Part shown: positions 13,387-23,280 of the stretch, one piece after another | Layout of the letters: each line of letters opens with the position of its first letter | Position numbering within the stretch: the first letter of the stretch is position 1 | Source: Patescibacteria group bacterium | Lineage (GTDB): Bacteria; Patescibacteriota; Microgenomatia; UBA8517 | NCBI GenBank assembly: GCA_038061225.1 | Contig: JBBTZT010000003.1 | Coordinates: 1-58,976, forward strand | Reading direction: 5' to 3' | Length of the DNA stretch: 58,976 nucleotides | The notes under the pieces: model-generated | The model's database searches: none | Told to the model about the DNA's origin: nothing | What the model saw: only the letters and a program-made list of their open reading frames with translations | Program-made: the position numbers and the translations under genes

Positions 13387-14046
13387 ATGGACAATCAAAA
13401 TCAGACACCGGTTACATCAATAGTTACTCCTCAAGTTGTAGTTGAACAACCAAAAACTAGTAACTTTCTAATTATCTTGTTATCTATTCTTCTATTTATC
13501 TCTGTAGTCATTGCAGGTTTTTTTGCATATCAAACACAACGGCTGGTCTCCGAATTAAAAATTAAAAATGAAGAGTTAATAGTTAAAACATCAGAACCAA
13601 CAGTTGAACCAGTTGCAACAAACAGTGCGATTGCAACAGCCGACCCAACTGCAAACTGGAAAACGTATACAGATGATAAATATAAATTTAGTTTAAGGTA
13701 TCCAAATAGAGTAAAAAATCATGTCGTAAGTGTTAGTGTTTTGAGGGTAACAGGATTTGGATACTGCTATTTATATGGTACTGAAAAAACGATTGTCATA
13801 AGCGGAATAAATGCAAAAACAGCTGATGGAGTTGGTACGGGAGATACTGAAATATGTGACCAGCCAAGAGATGTAATGTCTAAAAAAGGAAATACATTTG
13901 TTCTAATACCACTTGCTGTTAGCAATGACGGCTTGCCTGTGGATCAAATATTTATAAATTATGATTACCCGCTAAGCGATCTAAATCTAGCAAAGCAGAA
14001 TCTTGATCAGGTTCTTTCCACTTTTAAATTCACAGATGCAAAATAA
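13387..14046 (+). CDS. Single-TM exported protein with a DPTANWKTY motif (PsbP-like fold suspected), paralog 1
   Basis: TM ending IAGFFAYQTQ, Pro/Thr stalk, WKTYT...F...YP, C-terminal DQVLSTFKF. Confidence 0.8.
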   Translation: MDNQNQTPVTSIVTPQVVVEQPKTSNFLIILLSILLFISVVIAGFFAYQTQRLVSELKIKNEELIVKTSEPTVEPVATNSAIATADPTANWKTYTDDKYKFSLRYPNRVKNHVVSVSVLRVTGFGYCYLYGTEKTIVISGINAKTADGVGTGDTEICDQPRDVMSKKGNTFVLIPLAVSNDGLPVDQIFINYDYPLSDLNLAKQNLDQVLSTFKFTDAK

Positions 14047-14452: not shown

Positions 14453-15112
14453 ATGGAAAATCAAATGCCAGAAATTCCAACAGTTGATAGTCCACAGACT
14501 ACTGCCGTACAAACTGTAGATCAAAAGCCGTCGACCAATAGCTTTTTAGTAATTTTACTTTCTGTCTTATTACTTCTTTCAGTAATAATTGCAGGTTTCT
14601 TTGCATATCAAACTCAAAAACTTGTTAAAGAACTGACAATGTTAAAAACAGAACCAATTCCAACACCAGAAGTTACAATGGAACCAACAACAGAACCAGT
14701 TGCAACAGATAGTTCTGAAGTTGACCCAACTGCAAATTGGAAAACATATACAAATGAAAAATTTGTTTTTAAATACCCCTCAACTGTGACCGTTAGCCTT
14801 AAAACACAAGGCCAAGAAGAAATAATTGGGATAAAGGGTTTAATGAAGGACGTATCTTTGGTTGTTGATCCGATTGAAGATCATAATTTTTACTTAGGAA
14901 AACAAATTTTAAAAACAATTAAATACAACAACGTTTCATGGAATTTACTTACAGGTTCTCAACAATATTGTGATGGTGGCGAATGTGGCAATATTTCGGA
15001 CGCATTACAGGTTGAATATCAAAACAAAAGATATTCAATTGTGTTAGGAGATTTAATTTATCCCGACACAGTTCTTAACCAAATTCTTTCCACCTTTAAA
15101 TTCACCAATTAA
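14453..15112 (+). CDS. Single-TM exported protein with a DPTANWKTY motif, paralog 2
   Basis: Same TM, stalk, WKTY motif and NQILSTFKF end as 13387-14046. Confidence 0.8.
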   Translation: MENQMPEIPTVDSPQTTAVQTVDQKPSTNSFLVILLSVLLLLSVIIAGFFAYQTQKLVKELTMLKTEPIPTPEVTMEPTTEPVATDSSEVDPTANWKTYTNEKFVFKYPSTVTVSLKTQGQEEIIGIKGLMKDVSLVVDPIEDHNFYLGKQILKTIKYNNVSWNLLTGSQQYCDGGECGNISDALQVEYQNKRYSIVLGDLIYPDTVLNQILSTFKFTN

Positions 15113-17901: not shown

Positions 17902-18951
17902 ATGTCAGATACTGCCTTTGAGGAGATAAACATTTTAAGTGATAAAGTTAATAAGTCTACTATTCCTGAAGATTTAAAAAAATCTGTTCTTGTCCGCTTA
18001 TCTCAACTCCAAAAGCTTACTAATTCACCTACTTTTTTGCCGGAATATGACAGAATGGATAGTTATATCGGATGGATTACAAATTTGCCGTGGTCACAAA
18101 AATCTGAGGATAACTTAGATTTAGTAAACGCCAAAAAGATATTAGATGAAAAACATTTCGGCTTAGATGATATTAAAGATCGAATTTTAGAATATCTTTC
18201 TGTTATGAAGCTTAAAAAAGAAAAAGGCGAGGCGGATGATATATATCGTGCCCCAATTCTATGTTTTGTGGGACTTGTTGGCACAGGAAAAACAACAATT
18301 GCTTATTCAATTGCAGAGGCACTGGGAAGAAAAATTGCTCGTATACCATTTGGAGGAATGGGAGATCCTTTAGATCTTCGTGGCCAAAGTAAAATGCATC
18401 CAGAAGCAGAACCAGGGAAAATTATTAAAGCCATGAGAGATACACAGTTTAAAAATTCTGTAATACTTCTTGACGAAATTGATAGAGTGACTGATTTAGG
18501 CCGAGCTTCCATTATGGGTGTTTTGGTTGAACTTTTAGATCCTGGACAAAACCATGCATTTAGTGATCATTATATAGATTATCCATTTGATCTTTCAGAA
18601 TGTATTTTTATAGCAACAGCAAATAACACAACAAATATATCAACGGCAGTAATGGATAGAATAGAACCTATTATGATGCCTTCTTATACCGATCTTGAAA
18701 AAATAACCATTGGAAAGAGATATGTTTTCCCTAAAGCTTTAAAAGACGCAGGACTTACTCCAGAGGTTTTACAAATTGATGATGAAGTTTGGGCAAACTT
18801 AGTTAGACCATTTGGTTATGATGCAGGTATTCGTACAATGGAAAGGACAATAGGAGGAGTAGTTCGTAAAGTTGCAAGGGCAATAGTTGAGGGAAAAGGA
18901 ACTTCATTCCATGTAACTACAACAAATGTAAAAGAATTCCTTCCTTTATAG
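17902..18951 (+). CDS. Lon-type AAA+ ATPase module without the N-domain or protease domain
   Basis: LDEKHFGLDDIKDRILEYL, Walker A GLVGTGKTT, Walker B LLDEID, LLDPGQN..F.DHY. The protein stops where the Lon protease domain would begin. Confidence 0.85.
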   Translation: MSDTAFEEINILSDKVNKSTIPEDLKKSVLVRLSQLQKLTNSPTFLPEYDRMDSYIGWITNLPWSQKSEDNLDLVNAKKILDEKHFGLDDIKDRILEYLSVMKLKKEKGEADDIYRAPILCFVGLVGTGKTTIAYSIAEALGRKIARIPFGGMGDPLDLRGQSKMHPEAEPGKIIKAMRDTQFKNSVILLDEIDRVTDLGRASIMGVLVELLDPGQNHAFSDHYIDYPFDLSECIFIATANNTTNISTAVMDRIEPIMMPSYTDLEKITIGKRYVFPKALKDAGLTPEVLQIDDEVWANLVRPFGYDAGIRTMERTIGGVVRKVARAIVEGKGTSFHVTTTNVKEFLPL

Positions 18952-18963
18952 TAAAATAATTAA

Positions 18964-19389
18964 ATGAAGTTTCTTATTATTGGTGATTCGCATGGGAACA
19001 TTGCAAATCTAAAACATGTCATGGGATTTGCAAAAAATATTAAAGCAAAAGCTGTAATTCATACTGGCGATTGGAATAATTTAAAAAGTGTAGAAACAGT
19101 TTTAGAGTATAAAATCCCACTTTATTCTTGTTTGGGAAATGCAGATATAGATCCAAGATTCGAGTTTAAAGAACTCGTAGAGTTTGAAATTGATAAGGTT
19201 AAAATTGGTTTGATTCACAATATAAAAAAAATAAAACAAGACAAAGACAAATTTGATTTTATTTTCTGTGGGCATAACCATCAACAAAGACAGATAAAAA
19301 ACATAGTAAATCCTGGAGCTTTAGAAAACGAAATTAACTTTGCAATTTTTGATACAAAAACTAAAATAGTAGAATTTATAAATGATTAA
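18964..19389 (+). CDS. YfcE/MJ0936-type metallophosphoesterase
   Basis: GDSHGN, HTGD, GNAD, H, GHNH, NPG motifs. Confidence 0.9.
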   Translation: MKFLIIGDSHGNIANLKHVMGFAKNIKAKAVIHTGDWNNLKSVETVLEYKIPLYSCLGNADIDPRFEFKELVEFEIDKVKIGLIHNIKKIKQDKDKFDFIFCGHNHQQRQIKNIVNPGALENEINFAIFDTKTKIVEFIND

Positions 19390-19996
19390 AAACATAATAT
19401 TTGATTTTGGAGGGGTGATATTTACAGATGATGATATAGGTGTTTTATTTGATAATGAGGAATTAAATCAAAGGTTTCAGACCGATCAAAAAACTCTTGA
19501 GAATGCTTGGACTAAATATTGGAGAGAAGTTGGAGAAAACAGAATGACAATTATCGAGTTTTACAATAGTCTTCAATATGAAATAATAGGAAAAGTTGAT
19601 GAAGACTTTTCTAGGGAACTTTTAAAAATATATAAAAAGAAAACACACACCCTAGAGCCATATAATTTATTACCTTTTTTAAAGAAAAAATACAATTTAT
19701 ATGCAATTACTAATATTTTTAAGGAAGGTTATGAATTTAAAAAAAATAAGTATAGACTCAACGACCTTTTCAAATTAATCATTGCTTCTTGTGAGGTTAA
19801 AATTTCAAAAGCAAATCCTGAAATTTTCCAGATATTATTAAACTTGACCAATATCATACCTGAAGAAAGTTTGTTTATTGACGATCGAGAAAAAAACACA
19901 ATTCAAGCAGAAAAAATGGGTTTCAAAATACTTTTGTATGACAATATTAAGAATCTTAAAGAAAAATTAAATAATTTTAATATTAAATATGATTAA
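19382..19996 (+). CDS. HAD-superfamily hydrolase
   Basis: IIFDFGGV motif I, ITN motif II, K..PEIF, FIDDR.KN motif IV. Confidence 0.9.
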   Translation: MIKNIIFDFGGVIFTDDDIGVLFDNEELNQRFQTDQKTLENAWTKYWREVGENRMTIIEFYNSLQYEIIGKVDEDFSRELLKIYKKKTHTLEPYNLLPFLKKKYNLYAITNIFKEGYEFKKNKYRLNDLFKLIIASCEVKISKANPEIFQILLNLTNIIPEESLFIDDREKNTIQAEKMGFKILLYDNIKNLKEKLNNFNIKYD

Positions 19997-20093
19997 ACTT
20001 GAAGCCTTACACAAACTTAAGGACAAAATGGAAAAGGAGAATTCTCTTTCTTGCGGTTTACAAAACAAAAACCGAAATGATAGAATTAATTAA
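19989..20093 (+). pseudogene. Probable 5' remnant of the original udg gene (34 aa ORF)
   Basis: MIKLEALHKLKDKMEKENSL aligns loosely with the UDG N-terminus MDKKQELLQIKLDMEADKYL. The start overlaps the HAD gene stop, and the stop forms TAATG with the LAGLIDADG start. Confidence 0.45.
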
Positions 20094-20974
20094 TGAAGGT
20101 CCAAAGTTTTACTCGAAATAGATTAAAGTATTCAGTAAATGAGAAATTTTTTAACAAATGGAGTTCGCAGATGGCATATATTTTAGGGTTTACCTATTCA
20201 GATGGAAATATTTACAAATCTACACTTGCTTGGGATATACAAAAAAGGGATAGAGAATTACTTGTAAAAATTAGAAGAGCAATGAATAGTAACCATCCTA
20301 TTAAAGAGAGGTCTCATTCAGTTAGATTAAGAATAAGCAATTTGAAGTTGATTAGTGGTGCAATTAAACGAGGTTTAATGGAAAAGAAGTCTAAAAGAAT
20401 GATCTTACCGTCTATTCCAACTAAATTTATATCACATTTTATGAGAGGTTTTTTGGATGGTGACGGTTGGGTTGTTTTAAGAAATGGTAGAAATGAAGCC
20501 GATATAGGGTTTGTTAGCGGTAATCAGAAGTTTTTAGAAAATGTCTCGTTAAGAATATTTGAAGAAACAGGAATTAAAGGTCATGTAAGGGCAAAATTTA
20601 AAATTACTCCCAATGGTTTTAGATCTACGACATATCTTATGGAATATTTTTCTAATAACGCTGTGAGGGTAGGTAATTGGATATATAGCCATCTTTCACA
20701 AAAGGATTTAAAATTAAGAAGAAAATATATGAAATATTTAAAAGCTGTGAAGTTATACGATTACATAAATTCAGGAAGTAGGGGTGTGAGAGTTGTTCAG
20801 AAAAAGATGAAAGATACAATGAGAAACATACTGCATAAATTTTATGTTGAGAATCATCTTAATGCAGTTCAGATTGCAAATATTCTAAAGGTTCACTCAT
20901 CGTCAATATATCGCTGGTTGGAAAAAACAGGGACAAGACATCCAATACATAGAAAGGAATTTATTAGTGGATAA
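20093..20974 (+). mobile_element. Free-standing double-motif LAGLIDADG homing endonuclease with a C-terminal HTH
   Basis: Motifs AYILGFTYSDG and HFMRGFLDGDG; C-terminal NAVQIANILKVHSSSIYRWL HTH. Candidate promoter TTTACA(20057)-18-TAGAAT(20081). Confidence 0.85.
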
Positions 20975-21584
20975 GAAACAAGAGTTATTGCAAATAAAAT
21001 TAGATATGGAAGCTGACAAGTACCTCCCATTGATTTCAAAACCTCAAGATATTATTCCAGGTGATGGAAATTCTGATGCTGAAATAGTTTTTATTGGAGA
21101 AGCTGGTGGATATAATGAATCTGTTCAGAGAAAACCGTTTGTCGGTCAGGCGGGAAAGTTATTAGATAAGTTATTAGAATTATCTGATATTAAAAGAGAG
21201 GATGTTTATATCACTAACATGGTAAAGACAAGACCTCCAAATAATAGAGATCCGTTACCAGATGAATTAAAGTCATATGAAAACTATCTTGATAGAGAAT
21301 TAAAAGTGATTAAACCAAAAGTTATAATAACTCTTGGACGATTTTCGATGGCAAAGTTTTTGCCAAACGTTTTTATAAGTGGAGTTCATGGCAAAAAATA
21401 TGAAGTATTATTTGATAATAGAAAGATAATTGTGGTTCCTATGTATCATCCGGCAGCATCGTTGAGAAATGGAAGCATTCTTGAACAAGAAAAGAAAGAT
21501 TTTATTAATTTAAAAACTATATTAACAGAGACTTTATCTCAAGAAGGTGATAAAATTGATCCAGTTCAATTGGAACTTATCTAA
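20967..21584 (+). CDS. udg: Uracil-DNA glycosylase family 4-like (no cysteines)
   Basis: FIGEAGG.NE....PFVGQAGKLL, VYITN.VK.RPPNNRDP, MYHPAA; GTG start with an upstream AGGA. Confidence 0.9.
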   Translation: MDKKQELLQIKLDMEADKYLPLISKPQDIIPGDGNSDAEIVFIGEAGGYNESVQRKPFVGQAGKLLDKLLELSDIKREDVYITNMVKTRPPNNRDPLPDELKSYENYLDRELKVIKPKVIITLGRFSMAKFLPNVFISGVHGKKYEVLFDNRKIIVVPMYHPAASLRNGSILEQEKKDFINLKTILTETLSQEGDKIDPVQLELI

Positions 21585-21615
21585 ATTGAACAAATTAGAA
21601 TATAAATTATAAAAT

Positions 21616-23280
21616 ATGCTTCGATTTATAGCCCTTTCGGGTACTACAGGAGTTACTGAAAATTTAAATGTCTATGAATACCTGCCTAGCGGCAAGGCTG
21701 GTCAAGATGAAATGATCATCCTTGATTGTGGCGTTGGATTCCCTGATCTTGAAATGCCGGGAGTGGATCTTGTTATTCCTGACTTTTCATATGTCGTCAA
21801 GAACCGCCATAAATTAAAAGGAATTGTTTTATCTCAAGGTCATGAGGATCATATAGGGGCTTTACCCTTTTTACTCCGTCAAGTAAATGCTCCAATTTAT
21901 TGTGCGCCACTTGTGACTGAATTTGTAACCGAAAAATTTAGAGATAATGGAATAACTGATTTTAAGATAAATACATTTGATCCAACTAAAGATACATTTC
22001 AAATTGGATCTTTTAAATTCTCACCATTTAGAGTCGCTCATTCAGTTCCTGATACAGTAGGTTTTGCAATTGAGACACCTGAGGGAAAAATTATGCATGT
22101 TCCAGAACATAAAATTGATCAACAATCTGTTGATGGAATGTCTTTTGATTTAACTCGGGCCAAGAAACTTTCTGAAGGAAATGTACTCTGTTTAATCTCT
22201 GATTGTTTGGGTTCAAATGAACCGGGATTTACTGATAGTGGGCAAGAAATAGAAGAAAGAATGTTTAATATTGCCAGTAGTTCAAATAAAGCACTTTTTA
22301 TGAGTGCGATGTCATCCTCAATTGGTAGGTTTCAACAAATGGTTAATGTTGCAGTACGTCTAAGAAGAAAAGTTGTTTTTGTAGGACGTTCCGTCCAGAA
22401 TAAAACTGAATCTGCACACAAGTTGGGATATTTAAAATATTTAGATGAACAAGTAGTTGACTTTAAAAAAGCTAGAAAAATGCATCCTAGAGACTTAATG
22501 TATATTATTGCTGGCTGTTATGGTCAAGTAGGCAGTTCTGTTTATAGATTGGCAACAGATGATGATGATAGAATTTCGGCTTCAGCTGGAGATACCTTTA
22601 TTTTTTCAGCCAATCCTGCCCCTCCTTATTCAAAAGAAAGCCAGGATTTTGTAATCGATGAACTTATAGATCGTGGGGTTGATGTTCATTATTATGATCT
22701 TAAAGAAAGGCTCCATGTCTCAGGCCATGGTGGACAAGAAGATATAAAAATGCTTTTTAATATCACAAAACCTAAATATTTTATCCCTACAGGTGGAACT
22801 ATAAAACATATGTATTCCTATGAAAAACTAGTCGTATCGGAAGGAAAAGCAAAAAATAATGTTTTCAAACTAAAACCGGGTGACTCTATTGAGTTTAAAA
22901 ATGGTCAAGCTACAAGAGGTCAAAAAATTTCGGTAAAAGAAGTTATGGTTCATGGTCTTGGAATTGGAGATATTGGAAAAACAGTGCTTGAGCATAGAAC
23001 TTTACTTGGAAAACAAGGAATGGTTGTTGTGGTACTTAAAGCAACTAAACATGGAAAAATATTGGATAGACCTGAAATAGTAAGTCGTGGATTTGTATTT
23101 GAAGGAATTTCTGGAGGACTTTTAAACGATTCAATCCAAAGGTTAATGAAACACCTAAGAACTCACAATGATCTAAATTCTAAAAAAATTAAAGATGAAA
23201 CAATTAAATTTTTAGAAGGTTATTTTTTCAAATCTACAGGTAGAAGCCCAATGATTCTCCCCATTGTTGTAGAAGTTTGA
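21616..23280 (+). CDS. rnj: Ribonuclease J
   Basis: DCGVGFP, GHEDHIGALP, HSVPD, beta-CASP domain, HVSGHG. Confidence 0.93.
   Translation: MLRFIALSGTTGVTENLNVYEYLPSGKAGQDEMIILDCGVGFPDLEMPGVDLVIPDFSYVVKNRHKLKGIVLSQGHEDHIGALPFLLRQVNAPIYCAPLVTEFVTEKFRDNGITDFKINTFDPTKDTFQIGSFKFSPFRVAHSVPDTVGFAIETPEGKIMHVPEHKIDQQSVDGMSFDLTRAKKLSEGNVLCLISDCLGSNEPGFTDSGQEIEERMFNIASSSNKALFMSAMSSSIGRFQQMVNVAVRLRRKVVFVGRSVQNKTESAHKLGYLKYLDEQVVDFKKARKMHPRDLMYIIAGCYGQVGSSVYRLATDDDDRISASAGDTFIFSANPAPPYSKESQDFVIDELIDRGVDVHYYDLKERLHVSGHGGQEDIKMLFNITKPKYFIPTGGTIKHMYSYEKLVVSEGKAKNNVFKLKPGDSIEFKNGQATRGQKISVKEVMVHGLGIGDIGKTVLEHRTLLGKQGMVVVVLKATKHGKILDRPEIVSRGFVFEGISGGLLNDSIQRLMKHLRTHNDLNSKKIKDETIKFLEGYFFKSTGRSPMILPIVVEV

Follow-up and report, generated by a model that had tools for sequence, protein, structure and literature searches.

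Mobile endonuclease open reading frames (mORFs) have been described in fungal mitochondria, in atp6 of Allomyces macrogynus, in atp6, atp9, cox2 and nad3 of Glomus, in atp9 of Rhizopus and in cox2 of Mortierella (PMC3630166 and work cited there). They bring a foreign C-terminal segment to the host gene and leave the native one as a downstream remnant, and their in-phase joining to the host gene varies among the cases (PMC3630166). Here, we analyzed a stretch of 58,976 nucleotides from a Patescibacteria group bacterium (Microgenomatia, UBA8517; assembly GCA_038061225.1, contig JBBTZT010000003.1, positions 1 to 58,976), hereafter the window, in which a LAGLIDADG-helix-turn-helix (HTH) endonuclease gene directly precedes a complete gene for uracil-DNA glycosylase (udg; protein, UDG). 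Judged from sequence comparisons, this is likely a free-standing homing endonuclease gene that is specific for udg and is lodged in the 5′ end of that gene, with neither an intron nor an intein.

Of the systems described so far, the fungal mORFs come closest. In both cases an intron-less ORF of the LAGLIDADG type (in fungi, alternatively GIY-YIG) sits in a protein-coding gene and carries a foreign gene end while the gene stays whole, and the native remnant is nearer to the gene of the relatives than the copy in use is. The differences lie in the end affected and in the genome that hosts the element: here the 5′ end and the N-terminus are replaced, in a chromosome of the candidate phyla radiation (CPR, Patescibacteria), whereas in fungi it is the 3′ end and the C-terminus, in mitochondrial genomes. 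Unlike a fungal mORF, the element must supply the start codon and the ribosome-binding site of udg, both of which lie in the 3′ end of the endonuclease gene. It also has an additional HTH and keeps to a single target gene, udg, across many lineages. Finally, the fungal ORF is sometimes in phase with its host gene, whereas the ORFs of the window overlap out of frame (TAATG).

Intronless homing is reportedly also the mode of spread of SegF, SegG and MobE of the T-even phages, whose free-standing endonuclease genes are said to lie beside their targets. The phage enzymes cut the allele that lacks the gene, spread by break repair with co-conversion, and leave their own allele protected by sequence differences. 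The udg element is similar in having a free-standing gene by its target and in co-conversion, with cleavage and protection predicted here from the sequences. It differs in that the phage enzymes are of the GIY-YIG and HNH types, are intergenic and act in mixed infections, whereas this one is a LAGLIDADG-HTH protein encoded in cellular chromosomes, inside the 5′ end of the target and next to a duplicated stub of it. In Aeromonas phage Aeh1, nrdA is said to be split by mobE into two polypeptides that reassemble; there too a coding gene would be entered without an intron or intein and host function would survive, but udg is kept whole by a replacement 5′ end.

By its fold and both its catalytic motifs the protein resembles PI-SceI, PI-PfuI, the TliVMA intein, I-OnuI and the bI3 maturase, from which it differs by the absence of a splicing component and by the added C-terminal HTH. 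Intein- and intron-encoded LAGLIDADG endonucleases target conserved, functionally critical codons, which here would be those of the catalytic motif A of UDG. The order of a LAGLIDADG domain followed by a C-terminal HTH is shared with WhiA (PDB 3hyi), but WhiA is a conserved regulator with a fixed context that has lost the catalytic residues, whereas here the Asp residues are invariant and the presence of the gene is patchy. In the CPR, the LAGLIDADG genes located in rRNA genes lie in insertion sequences or in introns of the group I type, which are cut out of the rRNA transcripts (PMC11270868). These have in common with the udg element the host group, the enzyme superfamily and homing to conserved sites. 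Neither udg nor free-standing copies are mentioned in that study (PMC11270868), and full-text literature searches turned up no publication that connects LAGLIDADG genes with uracil-DNA glycosylase.

Structure of the udg locus

The genes and elements of the locus itself lie on the forward strand. A 34-aa ORF (19989-20093, stop codon at 20091-20093) starts where udg would be coupled to the upstream gene for a HAD-family hydrolase (19382-19996; Pfam Hydrolase/HAD_2), its ATG overlapping the HAD stop (ATGATTAA). An earlier note on this DNA, made from the sequence alone, had pointed to this position and had read the ORF as a parallel of the UDG start. The position is as described. Against the UDG N-terminus of the window itself neither the protein nor the DNA alignment was significant (BLOSUM score 23, shuffle mean 24), and the homology shows only against the UDGs of relatives. 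We distinguished two UDG types, A (L001, L002, L057, L062, L069 and L073) and B (L004, L060, L061 and L144), where L-numbers denote the loci compared; 80 metagenome loci were returned by a scan with an alignment of endonuclease homologues. When all 3133 six-frame ORFs of the window were searched with a hidden Markov model (HMM) of the first 45 residues of the type-B family, the 34-aa ORF matched over profile positions 1-21 at E=4e-7; the real udg scored E=1.6e-7 and the next non-UDG match E=1.2. The ORF is identical to several type-B N-termini at 15 of 20 residues and matches the UDG of L004 by BLASTP at E=3e-5, beginning MIKLEALHKLKDKMEKENSL where the udg of L004 begins MSNYKELHNLKDKMEKDNLL. 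Both L004 and L144, which are free of the endonuclease gene, have a udg that begins MSNYKELHNLKDKMEKDN, resembling the 34-aa ORF. Over these 20 codons the stub is more similar to the udg of the nearest relatives (type B) than is the N-terminus in use (type A). On these comparisons we identify the 34-aa ORF as the former 5′ end of udg, of type B, with codons 1-20 retained as a stub (19989-20048) that still begins at the position translationally coupled to HAD.

The UDG homology of the stub stops at codon 20-21 (20048-20051), in agreement with the sequence switch that had been placed at about 20048, and is followed by a leader of 44 nt (20049-20092). From about 20055 to 20092 the leader matches the sequence directly 5′ of the endonuclease gene in L056 (33/38), L145 and L147, with the conserved pattern TACAAAACAAAA.CCGAA.TG.TAGAATTAATTA-ATG. 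The promoter and the hairpin proposed for this segment are both found there, with different outcomes. The promoter-like element, TTTACA-18-TAGAAT with a TG (20057-20086; -35 at 20057-20062, extended -10 at 20078-20086), ends with its -10-like part 6 nt 5′ of the endonuclease ATG. In a promoter scan, the number of such sites in this AT-rich stretch was no higher than in shuffles, and the element carries some weight only because relatives have kept its TG-TA[GA]AAT box. The CGGTTT/AAACCG hairpin (20054-20074) is a modest fold (z=-2.7), with one arm altered in L145 and no counterpart in L147 and L056, and we did not retain it as a functional element.

The stop of the stub ORF overlaps the endonuclease ATG as TAATG (20091-20095), as had been noted. 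The endonuclease gene (20093-20974) encodes a free-standing, double-motif LAGLIDADG-HTH protein of 293 aa. Motif 1 (MAYILGFTYSDG, 20171-20206) ends in the catalytic Asp37 and motif 2 (HFMRGFLDGDG, 20435-20467) in the catalytic Asp124, and D37/G38 and D124/G125 are invariant among 40 homologues. LAGLIDADG_3 (5.5e-8) was the only Pfam family found in the protein, which has no Hint/intein domain. Its AlphaFold model (pLDDT 90.4) had LAGLIDADG endonucleases as top Foldseek matches, PI-SceI and I-OnuI as well as the bI3 maturase, with WhiA (PDB 3hyi) as a weaker match, and 2dch was found by profile comparison with the PDB. From its two motifs and its alpha-beta-beta-alpha-beta-beta-alpha repeat fold, the protein is predicted to be a monomeric, double-motif LAGLIDADG homing endonuclease with site-specific cleavage. 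The C-terminal ~50 residues form a three-helix HTH in the model (residues ~243-279, 20819-20929), with S270, Y273, R274, W275 and L276 invariant; HTH_23 passes the Pfam cutoff in the homologue P0060, and the matches of the window protein are weak. This HTH could serve in extended DNA recognition or, as had been suggested, in autoregulation. The ratio of nonsynonymous to synonymous divergence (dN/dS) of the endonuclease gene is 0.14-0.34 in related pairs, so that intact copies are under purifying selection. Members of one subfamily (L084-L119, with P0060, P0064 and P0072) are ~380-410 aa long, with ~100 extra C-terminal residues; some of them are labelled 'YacG/DUF329' by JGI, and Pfam gives a weak treble-clef (VATC) match. 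One homologue, P0082 (41% identical, 279 aa), carries the NCBI source label of a Woesearchaeota (DPANN) archaeon; either the family reaches archaea or the contig is mis-binned.

The 3′ end of the endonuclease gene contains the start of udg, as the earlier note had observed. The GTG at 20967 overlaps the endonuclease stop TAA at 20972-20974 (GTGGATAA), and a Shine-Dalgarno (SD)-like AGGA (20955-20958) lies 8 nt 5′ of the GTG within the endonuclease coding region. The udg that follows is a complete gene, putatively of the family-4 type (20967-21584, 205 aa, Pfam UDG 1.2e-30) and is colinear from residue 1 with its endonuclease-free homologues. It is in the same reading frame as the 34-aa ORF, and the endonuclease gene is in a different one. 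Contigs with the identical endonuclease protein numbered 14, and at eight places among them, from several independent groundwater samples, the gene order was the same. The structure is therefore not an assembly artefact.

Recurrence across the family

Ninety-seven endonuclease homologues were found at E<=1e-5, most of them full length. In all of the 80 loci where the contig allows it, udg lies directly downstream on the same strand, with an overlap of mostly 4 nt; for the 8 loci with no udg detected, either the contig ends or a transposase-like ORF intervenes (L127). In the subfamily of the window the neighbours are Lon, metallophosphoesterase (MPE) and HAD genes on one side and RNase J on the other, and in more distant subfamilies the neighbors belong to at least 20 different gene families on the upstream side and at least 15 on the downstream side. 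The neighborhoods thus vary while udg stays, which means that the endonuclease gene tracks udg and not a gene neighborhood.

Stubs recur as well. When a general UDG N-terminus profile was applied to the 400 nt 5′ of the endonuclease gene, 13 loci had a stub at E<=1e-3 and 20/79 at E<=0.05. At the latter threshold nothing matched in any of four control sets, which were taken from the endonuclease gene itself, from farther 5′, from the region 3′ of udg and from the reverse complement. Shorter stubs can be recognized by eye in L059, L060, L063 and L147 (e.g., MTKFEELHKF... and MSNYSELHKLKE*). The stub is fused in frame to the endonuclease gene in L065, L103, L086, L089 and L093, and in L062, L064, L069 and L073 there is none, the endonuclease gene abutting the upstream gene. 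Stub ends range from UDG codon ~10 to ~53. The order of stub, endonuclease gene and complete udg, which the earlier note had proposed looking for at other CPR LAGLIDADG genes, is therefore found family-wide. Degenerate endonuclease copies also occur: the gene is frameshifted in L102, truncated in L095, L103 and L132, and interrupted in L127. In L127 (2944-4521), the endonuclease ORF breaks off after ~185 residues. Downstream comes an ORF of 312 aa that resembles a transposase and has a Cys-rich motif at its N-terminus; this appears to be an insertion disrupting the endonuclease gene. In L078, a second complete gene of the UDG superfamily (520-1104, 195 aa, Pfam UDG 1.6e-19, HPSP motif) lies directly 5′ of the endonuclease gene, giving the order UDG-endonuclease-UDG; this upstream UDG is only distantly related to types A and B.

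Several further features were recorded around the locus. Upstream of the HAD gene are the genes for a Lon-like AAA protein (17902-18951) and MPE (18964-19389), and RNase J (21616-23280) follows udg. The same 9 nt, ATGATTAAA, are found at the MPE/HAD (19382-19390) and HAD/stub (19989-19997) start-stop overlaps. Since no HAD gene separates MPE from udg in L004, L144, L147 and a related strain of run X8, the gene may itself be an insertion with a duplicated junction. In L146 (1-558), the gene 5′ of Memo/Lon encodes a 1697-aa alpha-2-macroglobulin-like protein with Hint/PT-HINT matches (precomputed Pfam). Elsewhere in the window, two adjacent genes of 219 aa each (13387-14046 and 14453-15112) are 41% identical, with a common motif DPTANWKTYT and a shared hydrophobic stretch in the N-terminal region that is probably a membrane helix; they are tandem paralogues. 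No further LAGLIDADG copies were found in the window.

Chimeric udg and signs of transfer

The presence of the element is patchy among close relatives. The endonuclease gene is present in the window, L003, L145, L146 and L147, and absent from L001, L002, L004, L144 and the run-X8 strain, all of them with the synteny Lon ... udg-RNase J. By their flanking genes, L004, L144 and the X8 strain, which co-occurs with the window, are the nearest endonuclease-free relatives; Lon of the window is 84% identical in aa to that of L004 and 67-69% to those of L001-L003. Contigs of the X8 strain are colinear with the window at 18800-19119, at 20013-20052, where one aligns to the stub at >=85%, and from 21612 onward, and their lengths fit an order MPE-udg-RNase J with no HAD and no endonuclease gene. 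When the endonuclease-free udg allele of this strain was searched for with a chimeric protein as query, only P0102/L144 was found, which is no closer than L004 in the stub. The expectation of the earlier note that endonuclease-free udg alleles begin like the 34-aa ORF was borne out by the nearest ones (L004 and L144) but not by the more distant L001 and L002, which start M[SN]KKEEL, as the replacement N-terminus does. This type of N-terminus is therefore probably native to another lineage.

The udg of the window changes its affinity along its length. Codons 1-114 (20967-21308) group with type A (70-90% identity); this 5′ part is 70-77% identical in aa to L001-L003 versus 48% to L004, and its first 60 residues are 33-43% identical to L004. 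Codons 121-185 group with type B, and the 3′ part (codons 121-205, 21327-21584) is 76-81% identical to L144 at the nucleotide level, versus 50-68% to type A, so that the nucleotide profile agrees. Among the informative sites, 32/34 before codon 114 are of type A and 7/11 after codon 121 are of type B, with a breakpoint at codons 114-121 (max chi-square 17.3, permutation p~0.002). By these measures the gene is a chimera of an incoming type-A 5′ part and a resident type-B 3′ part, and codons 1-114 would be a co-conversion tract that travelled with the endonuclease gene. The protein has HPAA where family-4 UDGs have motif B (HP[SA]) and a motif A that reads GEAGGYNES, without a proline (IGEAGGYNESVQRKPFVGQ, codons at 21093-21149), and lacks the N-terminal CxxC. 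UDGs of types A and B in general are without this CxxC of the iron-sulfur cluster and have D-K-x-L-P-L in its place, while Dehalococcoidia and other family-4 UDGs of the same alignment have it. UDGs with an altered motif A are under purifying selection (dN/dS 0.07-0.37), so that these, the UDG of the window included, are probably still functional.

Pairs of related loci point to transfer of the same unit. A segment of 1168 nt that starts 83 nt 5′ of the endonuclease gene is 98.2% identical between L057 and L058, although the MPE genes of the two loci reach only 68-79%. In L058 (2700-2990), the resident MPE gene is complete, and ~85 nt of unassigned sequence separate it from a duplicated, L057-like MPE tail of ~20 nt. 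The tail is part of the near-identical cassette, and we take it to mark the illegitimate left junction of the transfer. In L093/L095 and L100/L111 the flanks are unrelated and only the [stub-]endonuclease-udg segment is common, at 80-98% identity that declines along udg to 59-73%. From a background of 75-92%, identity in L064/L065 rises to 92-98% in an island that takes in the endonuclease gene and the udg 5′ part. In at least 8 pairs the synonymous divergence (dS) is low in the endonuclease gene and stays so over codons 1-65 of udg, and the final third of udg has values several-fold higher, as in L100/L104 (0.05/0.03, then 0.00, 0.17 and 1.71) and L098/L099 (0.05/0.08, then 0.02, 0.09 and 0.54). 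These comparisons show a mobile unit that extends from the leader through the endonuclease gene into the 5′ part of the udg allele. Taken together with the patchy presence, the degenerate copies and the purifying selection on intact ones, they are consistent with homing in which a double-strand break is repaired and the 5′ part of udg is co-converted.

The element did not enter the window locus very recently. The closest genome, L147, is 86-93% identical in aa in PNPase, Lon, RNase J and FtsK, and only 64% in the endonuclease, 48% in the 5′ half of udg and 72% in the 3′ half. L145 has the end of a HAD-like upstream gene, a decayed copy of the same stub and the same leader, with an endonuclease that is 67% identical and a udg that is type-B-like throughout; the stub/leader junction of the window thus predates the split of these lineages. 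Compared by segment with L145 and L147, endonuclease codons 1-70 of the window have a flank-like similarity and the rest of the gene far less. With dS saturated, this is suggestive of a second replacement, in which the type-A 5′ part of udg, and perhaps most of the endonuclease gene as well, may have been acquired from another variant of the element. In RNase J (21614-22114), the identity of the window to L147 swings from 76% to 100% in steps of 100 nt, which means that recombination mosaicism reaches beyond the cassette.

Probable cleavage target, proposed mechanism and competing explanations

Motif A of UDG differs between alleles with and without the endonuclease gene. The canonical GE[AG]PGxxED is found in 3/66 endonuclease-linked UDGs and in 48/54 unlinked ones of the genome set; it is also present in 151/161 type-B family proteins of unknown context. 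The changes in linked alleles differ between endonuclease subfamilies (GEAGG, GEAAG, SEAPG and ..EN/ES/EA), whereas the proline of the canonical motif is retained in the stubs. The longest stubs extend as far as motif A; those of the L124-L135 subfamily cover ...FVGE...PGR[NY]EDG, where they end, and have the endonuclease ATG within these codons. In the window, the conversion tract covers motif A. Together, this suggests that the cleavage target is formed by the codons of the canonical motif A or lies next to them. The changes look like resistance mutations in a target site that would span these codons, and immunity of the linked allele to recutting may be inferred from its altered motif A.

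On this basis, homing could proceed as follows. In udg alleles without the endonuclease gene, the enzyme would cut within the motif-A codons (GE[AG]PGxxED) or beside them, and the break would be repaired from an endonuclease-bearing allele. The left crossover would fall in the stub or the upstream flank, unless the left end were joined illegitimately, and the right crossover inside udg. The copied udg 5′ part would bring in an uncut motif-A variant (GEAGG, GEAAG, SEAPG or ..EN/ES), and the host would still make a functional UDG, with translation beginning from the udg SD and start codon inside the 3′ end of the endonuclease gene. The endonuclease itself might be expressed by coupling to the stub ORF, through termination-reinitiation at TAATG or, in L065, L103, L086, L089 and L093, as part of the in-frame fusion; alternatively, the promoter-like element of the leader might drive it. 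A search for RNA runs from which transcripts could be mapped listed none. The central proposal of the earlier note, a non-splicing homing element that restores udg with a diverged N-terminus, is thus supported by the chimera, by the recurrence of the architecture and by the signs of transfer and co-conversion.

A number of observations weigh against reading the locus as a udg-specific homing element. The type-B assignment of the stub rests on 20 codons (15/20 identities, versus 10/20 to type A), and the variable stub ends alone do not fix an insertion point. No close donor of the cassette of the window was found, the nearest endonucleases being 63-67% identical, and L001 and L002, which have a type-A udg and no endonuclease gene, show no scar. 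The insertion in the window is old, given the stub and leader in common with L145, and its udg 5′ part may be a later exchange. Several dS values are saturated. At deep levels, endonuclease divergence is correlated with that of UDG, and equally with all segments of the latter (r ~0.73-0.76), which indicates long residence in host lineages and would fit a stable operon too; across all loci, endonuclease distances did not track the N-terminal part of UDG better than the C-terminal part, a signal that is confined to close pairs. Lastly, the difference in motif A has a Fisher p of ~5e-23 that ignores shared ancestry, and three endonuclease-linked UDGs are fully canonical.

Such a stable operon is the core of one competing explanation, in which the endonuclease is a domesticated partner of UDG, either a WhiA-like regulator or a repair nuclease, inherited vertically, with the stubs as relics of one ancient rearrangement. 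The pairing and its start/stop overlap are indeed strictly conserved down to 33% protein identity, the two divergences are correlated, both genes are under purifying selection, and WhiA, with its LAGLIDADG domain and HTH, is among the fold matches. The explanation is nevertheless hard to reconcile with patchy presence among close relatives, with a 98%-identical cassette in backgrounds of 68-79%, or with islands of identity confined to stub-endonuclease-udg on unrelated contigs and dS gradients inside udg. Stubs, though non-coding relics, are recognizable in many subfamilies, and degenerate endonuclease copies exist. Both catalytic Asp residues are kept, and no match to WhiA_N, LAGLIDADG_WhiA or HTH_WhiA was found in the protein with Pfam. 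We consider domestication unlikely.

Somewhat less likely still is the explanation that the locus is simply variable and owes its mosaic structure to ordinary homologous recombination or to horizontal transfer, with the endonuclease gene as an inactive passenger that has ceased to drive its own transfer. Mosaicism beyond the cassette (RNase J and the upstream flanks) would be expected under it, and it gains from the missing donor and from the age of a stub that the window has in common with L145. However, a passenger would hardly maintain an intact ORF under purifying selection with invariant catalytic residues, nor would the identity islands of so many independent pairs be expected to center on the endonuclease gene together with the 5′ part of udg. 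The gene also accompanies udg in many unrelated neighborhoods, and motif A is altered specifically in the linked alleles.

The 34-aa ORF might also be a chance ORF in an intergenic spacer, unrelated to udg, as its non-significant similarity to the UDG N-terminus of the window would allow; the HMM match (E=4e-7), the stubs in 19 other loci with clean controls, and the stubs at the same place in L147 and L145 refute this, and we regard it as highly improbable. Least probable of all, to the point of being negligible, is a group I/II intron or an intein with the 34-aa ORF as exon or extein 1 of a spliced udg: the common reading frame of the 34-aa ORF and udg and the usual location of CPR LAGLIDADG genes in introns of rRNA genes (PMC11270868) speak for it, but the endonuclease gene is in another frame and has no Hint/intein domain, udg is colinear from residue 1 so that joining the stub would duplicate the N-terminal helix, and there is no room for a ribozyme, with 44 nt between stub and endonuclease ATG and none downstream, where the stop overlaps the udg start. 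In keeping with this, an Rfam scan of 19000-22000 at E<=1 returned only a SAM/SAH model at 21888-21920 on the reverse strand (19 bits versus a cutoff of 40 bits, E=0.4), which lies inside the RNase J coding region and is almost certainly a chance match.

The reading of the locus as a homing element can be extended to the family, on a more tentative footing and with rather less than even confidence. The widespread CPR LAGLIDADG-HTH family would target the udg motif-A codons and spread together with a resistant motif that has lost its proline or its ED, repeatedly rewriting the active-site motif and the N-terminus of UDG, a DNA-repair enzyme, across many lineages, with variants re-invading loci that are already occupied. 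It would then be the first case of homing in a bacterial chromosome that replaces the 5′ end of its target. The ~70 related loci, from groundwater bacteria, constitute natural pairs of target and non-target, that is, free and linked udg alleles with stubs marking the insertion region, through which the site recognized by a new LAGLIDADG-HTH scaffold can be tested directly. For annotation, stub ORFs and in-frame stub-endonuclease fusions should not be taken as ordinary genes. If the homing interpretation is correct, an endonuclease gene can colonize the start of an essential-type gene of a bacterial chromosome without any splicing machinery, by carrying along substitutes for the start codon, the ribosome-binding site and the N-terminal coding sequence. 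Part of the unusual sequence diversity of UDG in the CPR, with the altered catalytic motif, would then reflect the action of a selfish element and not the function of the enzyme.

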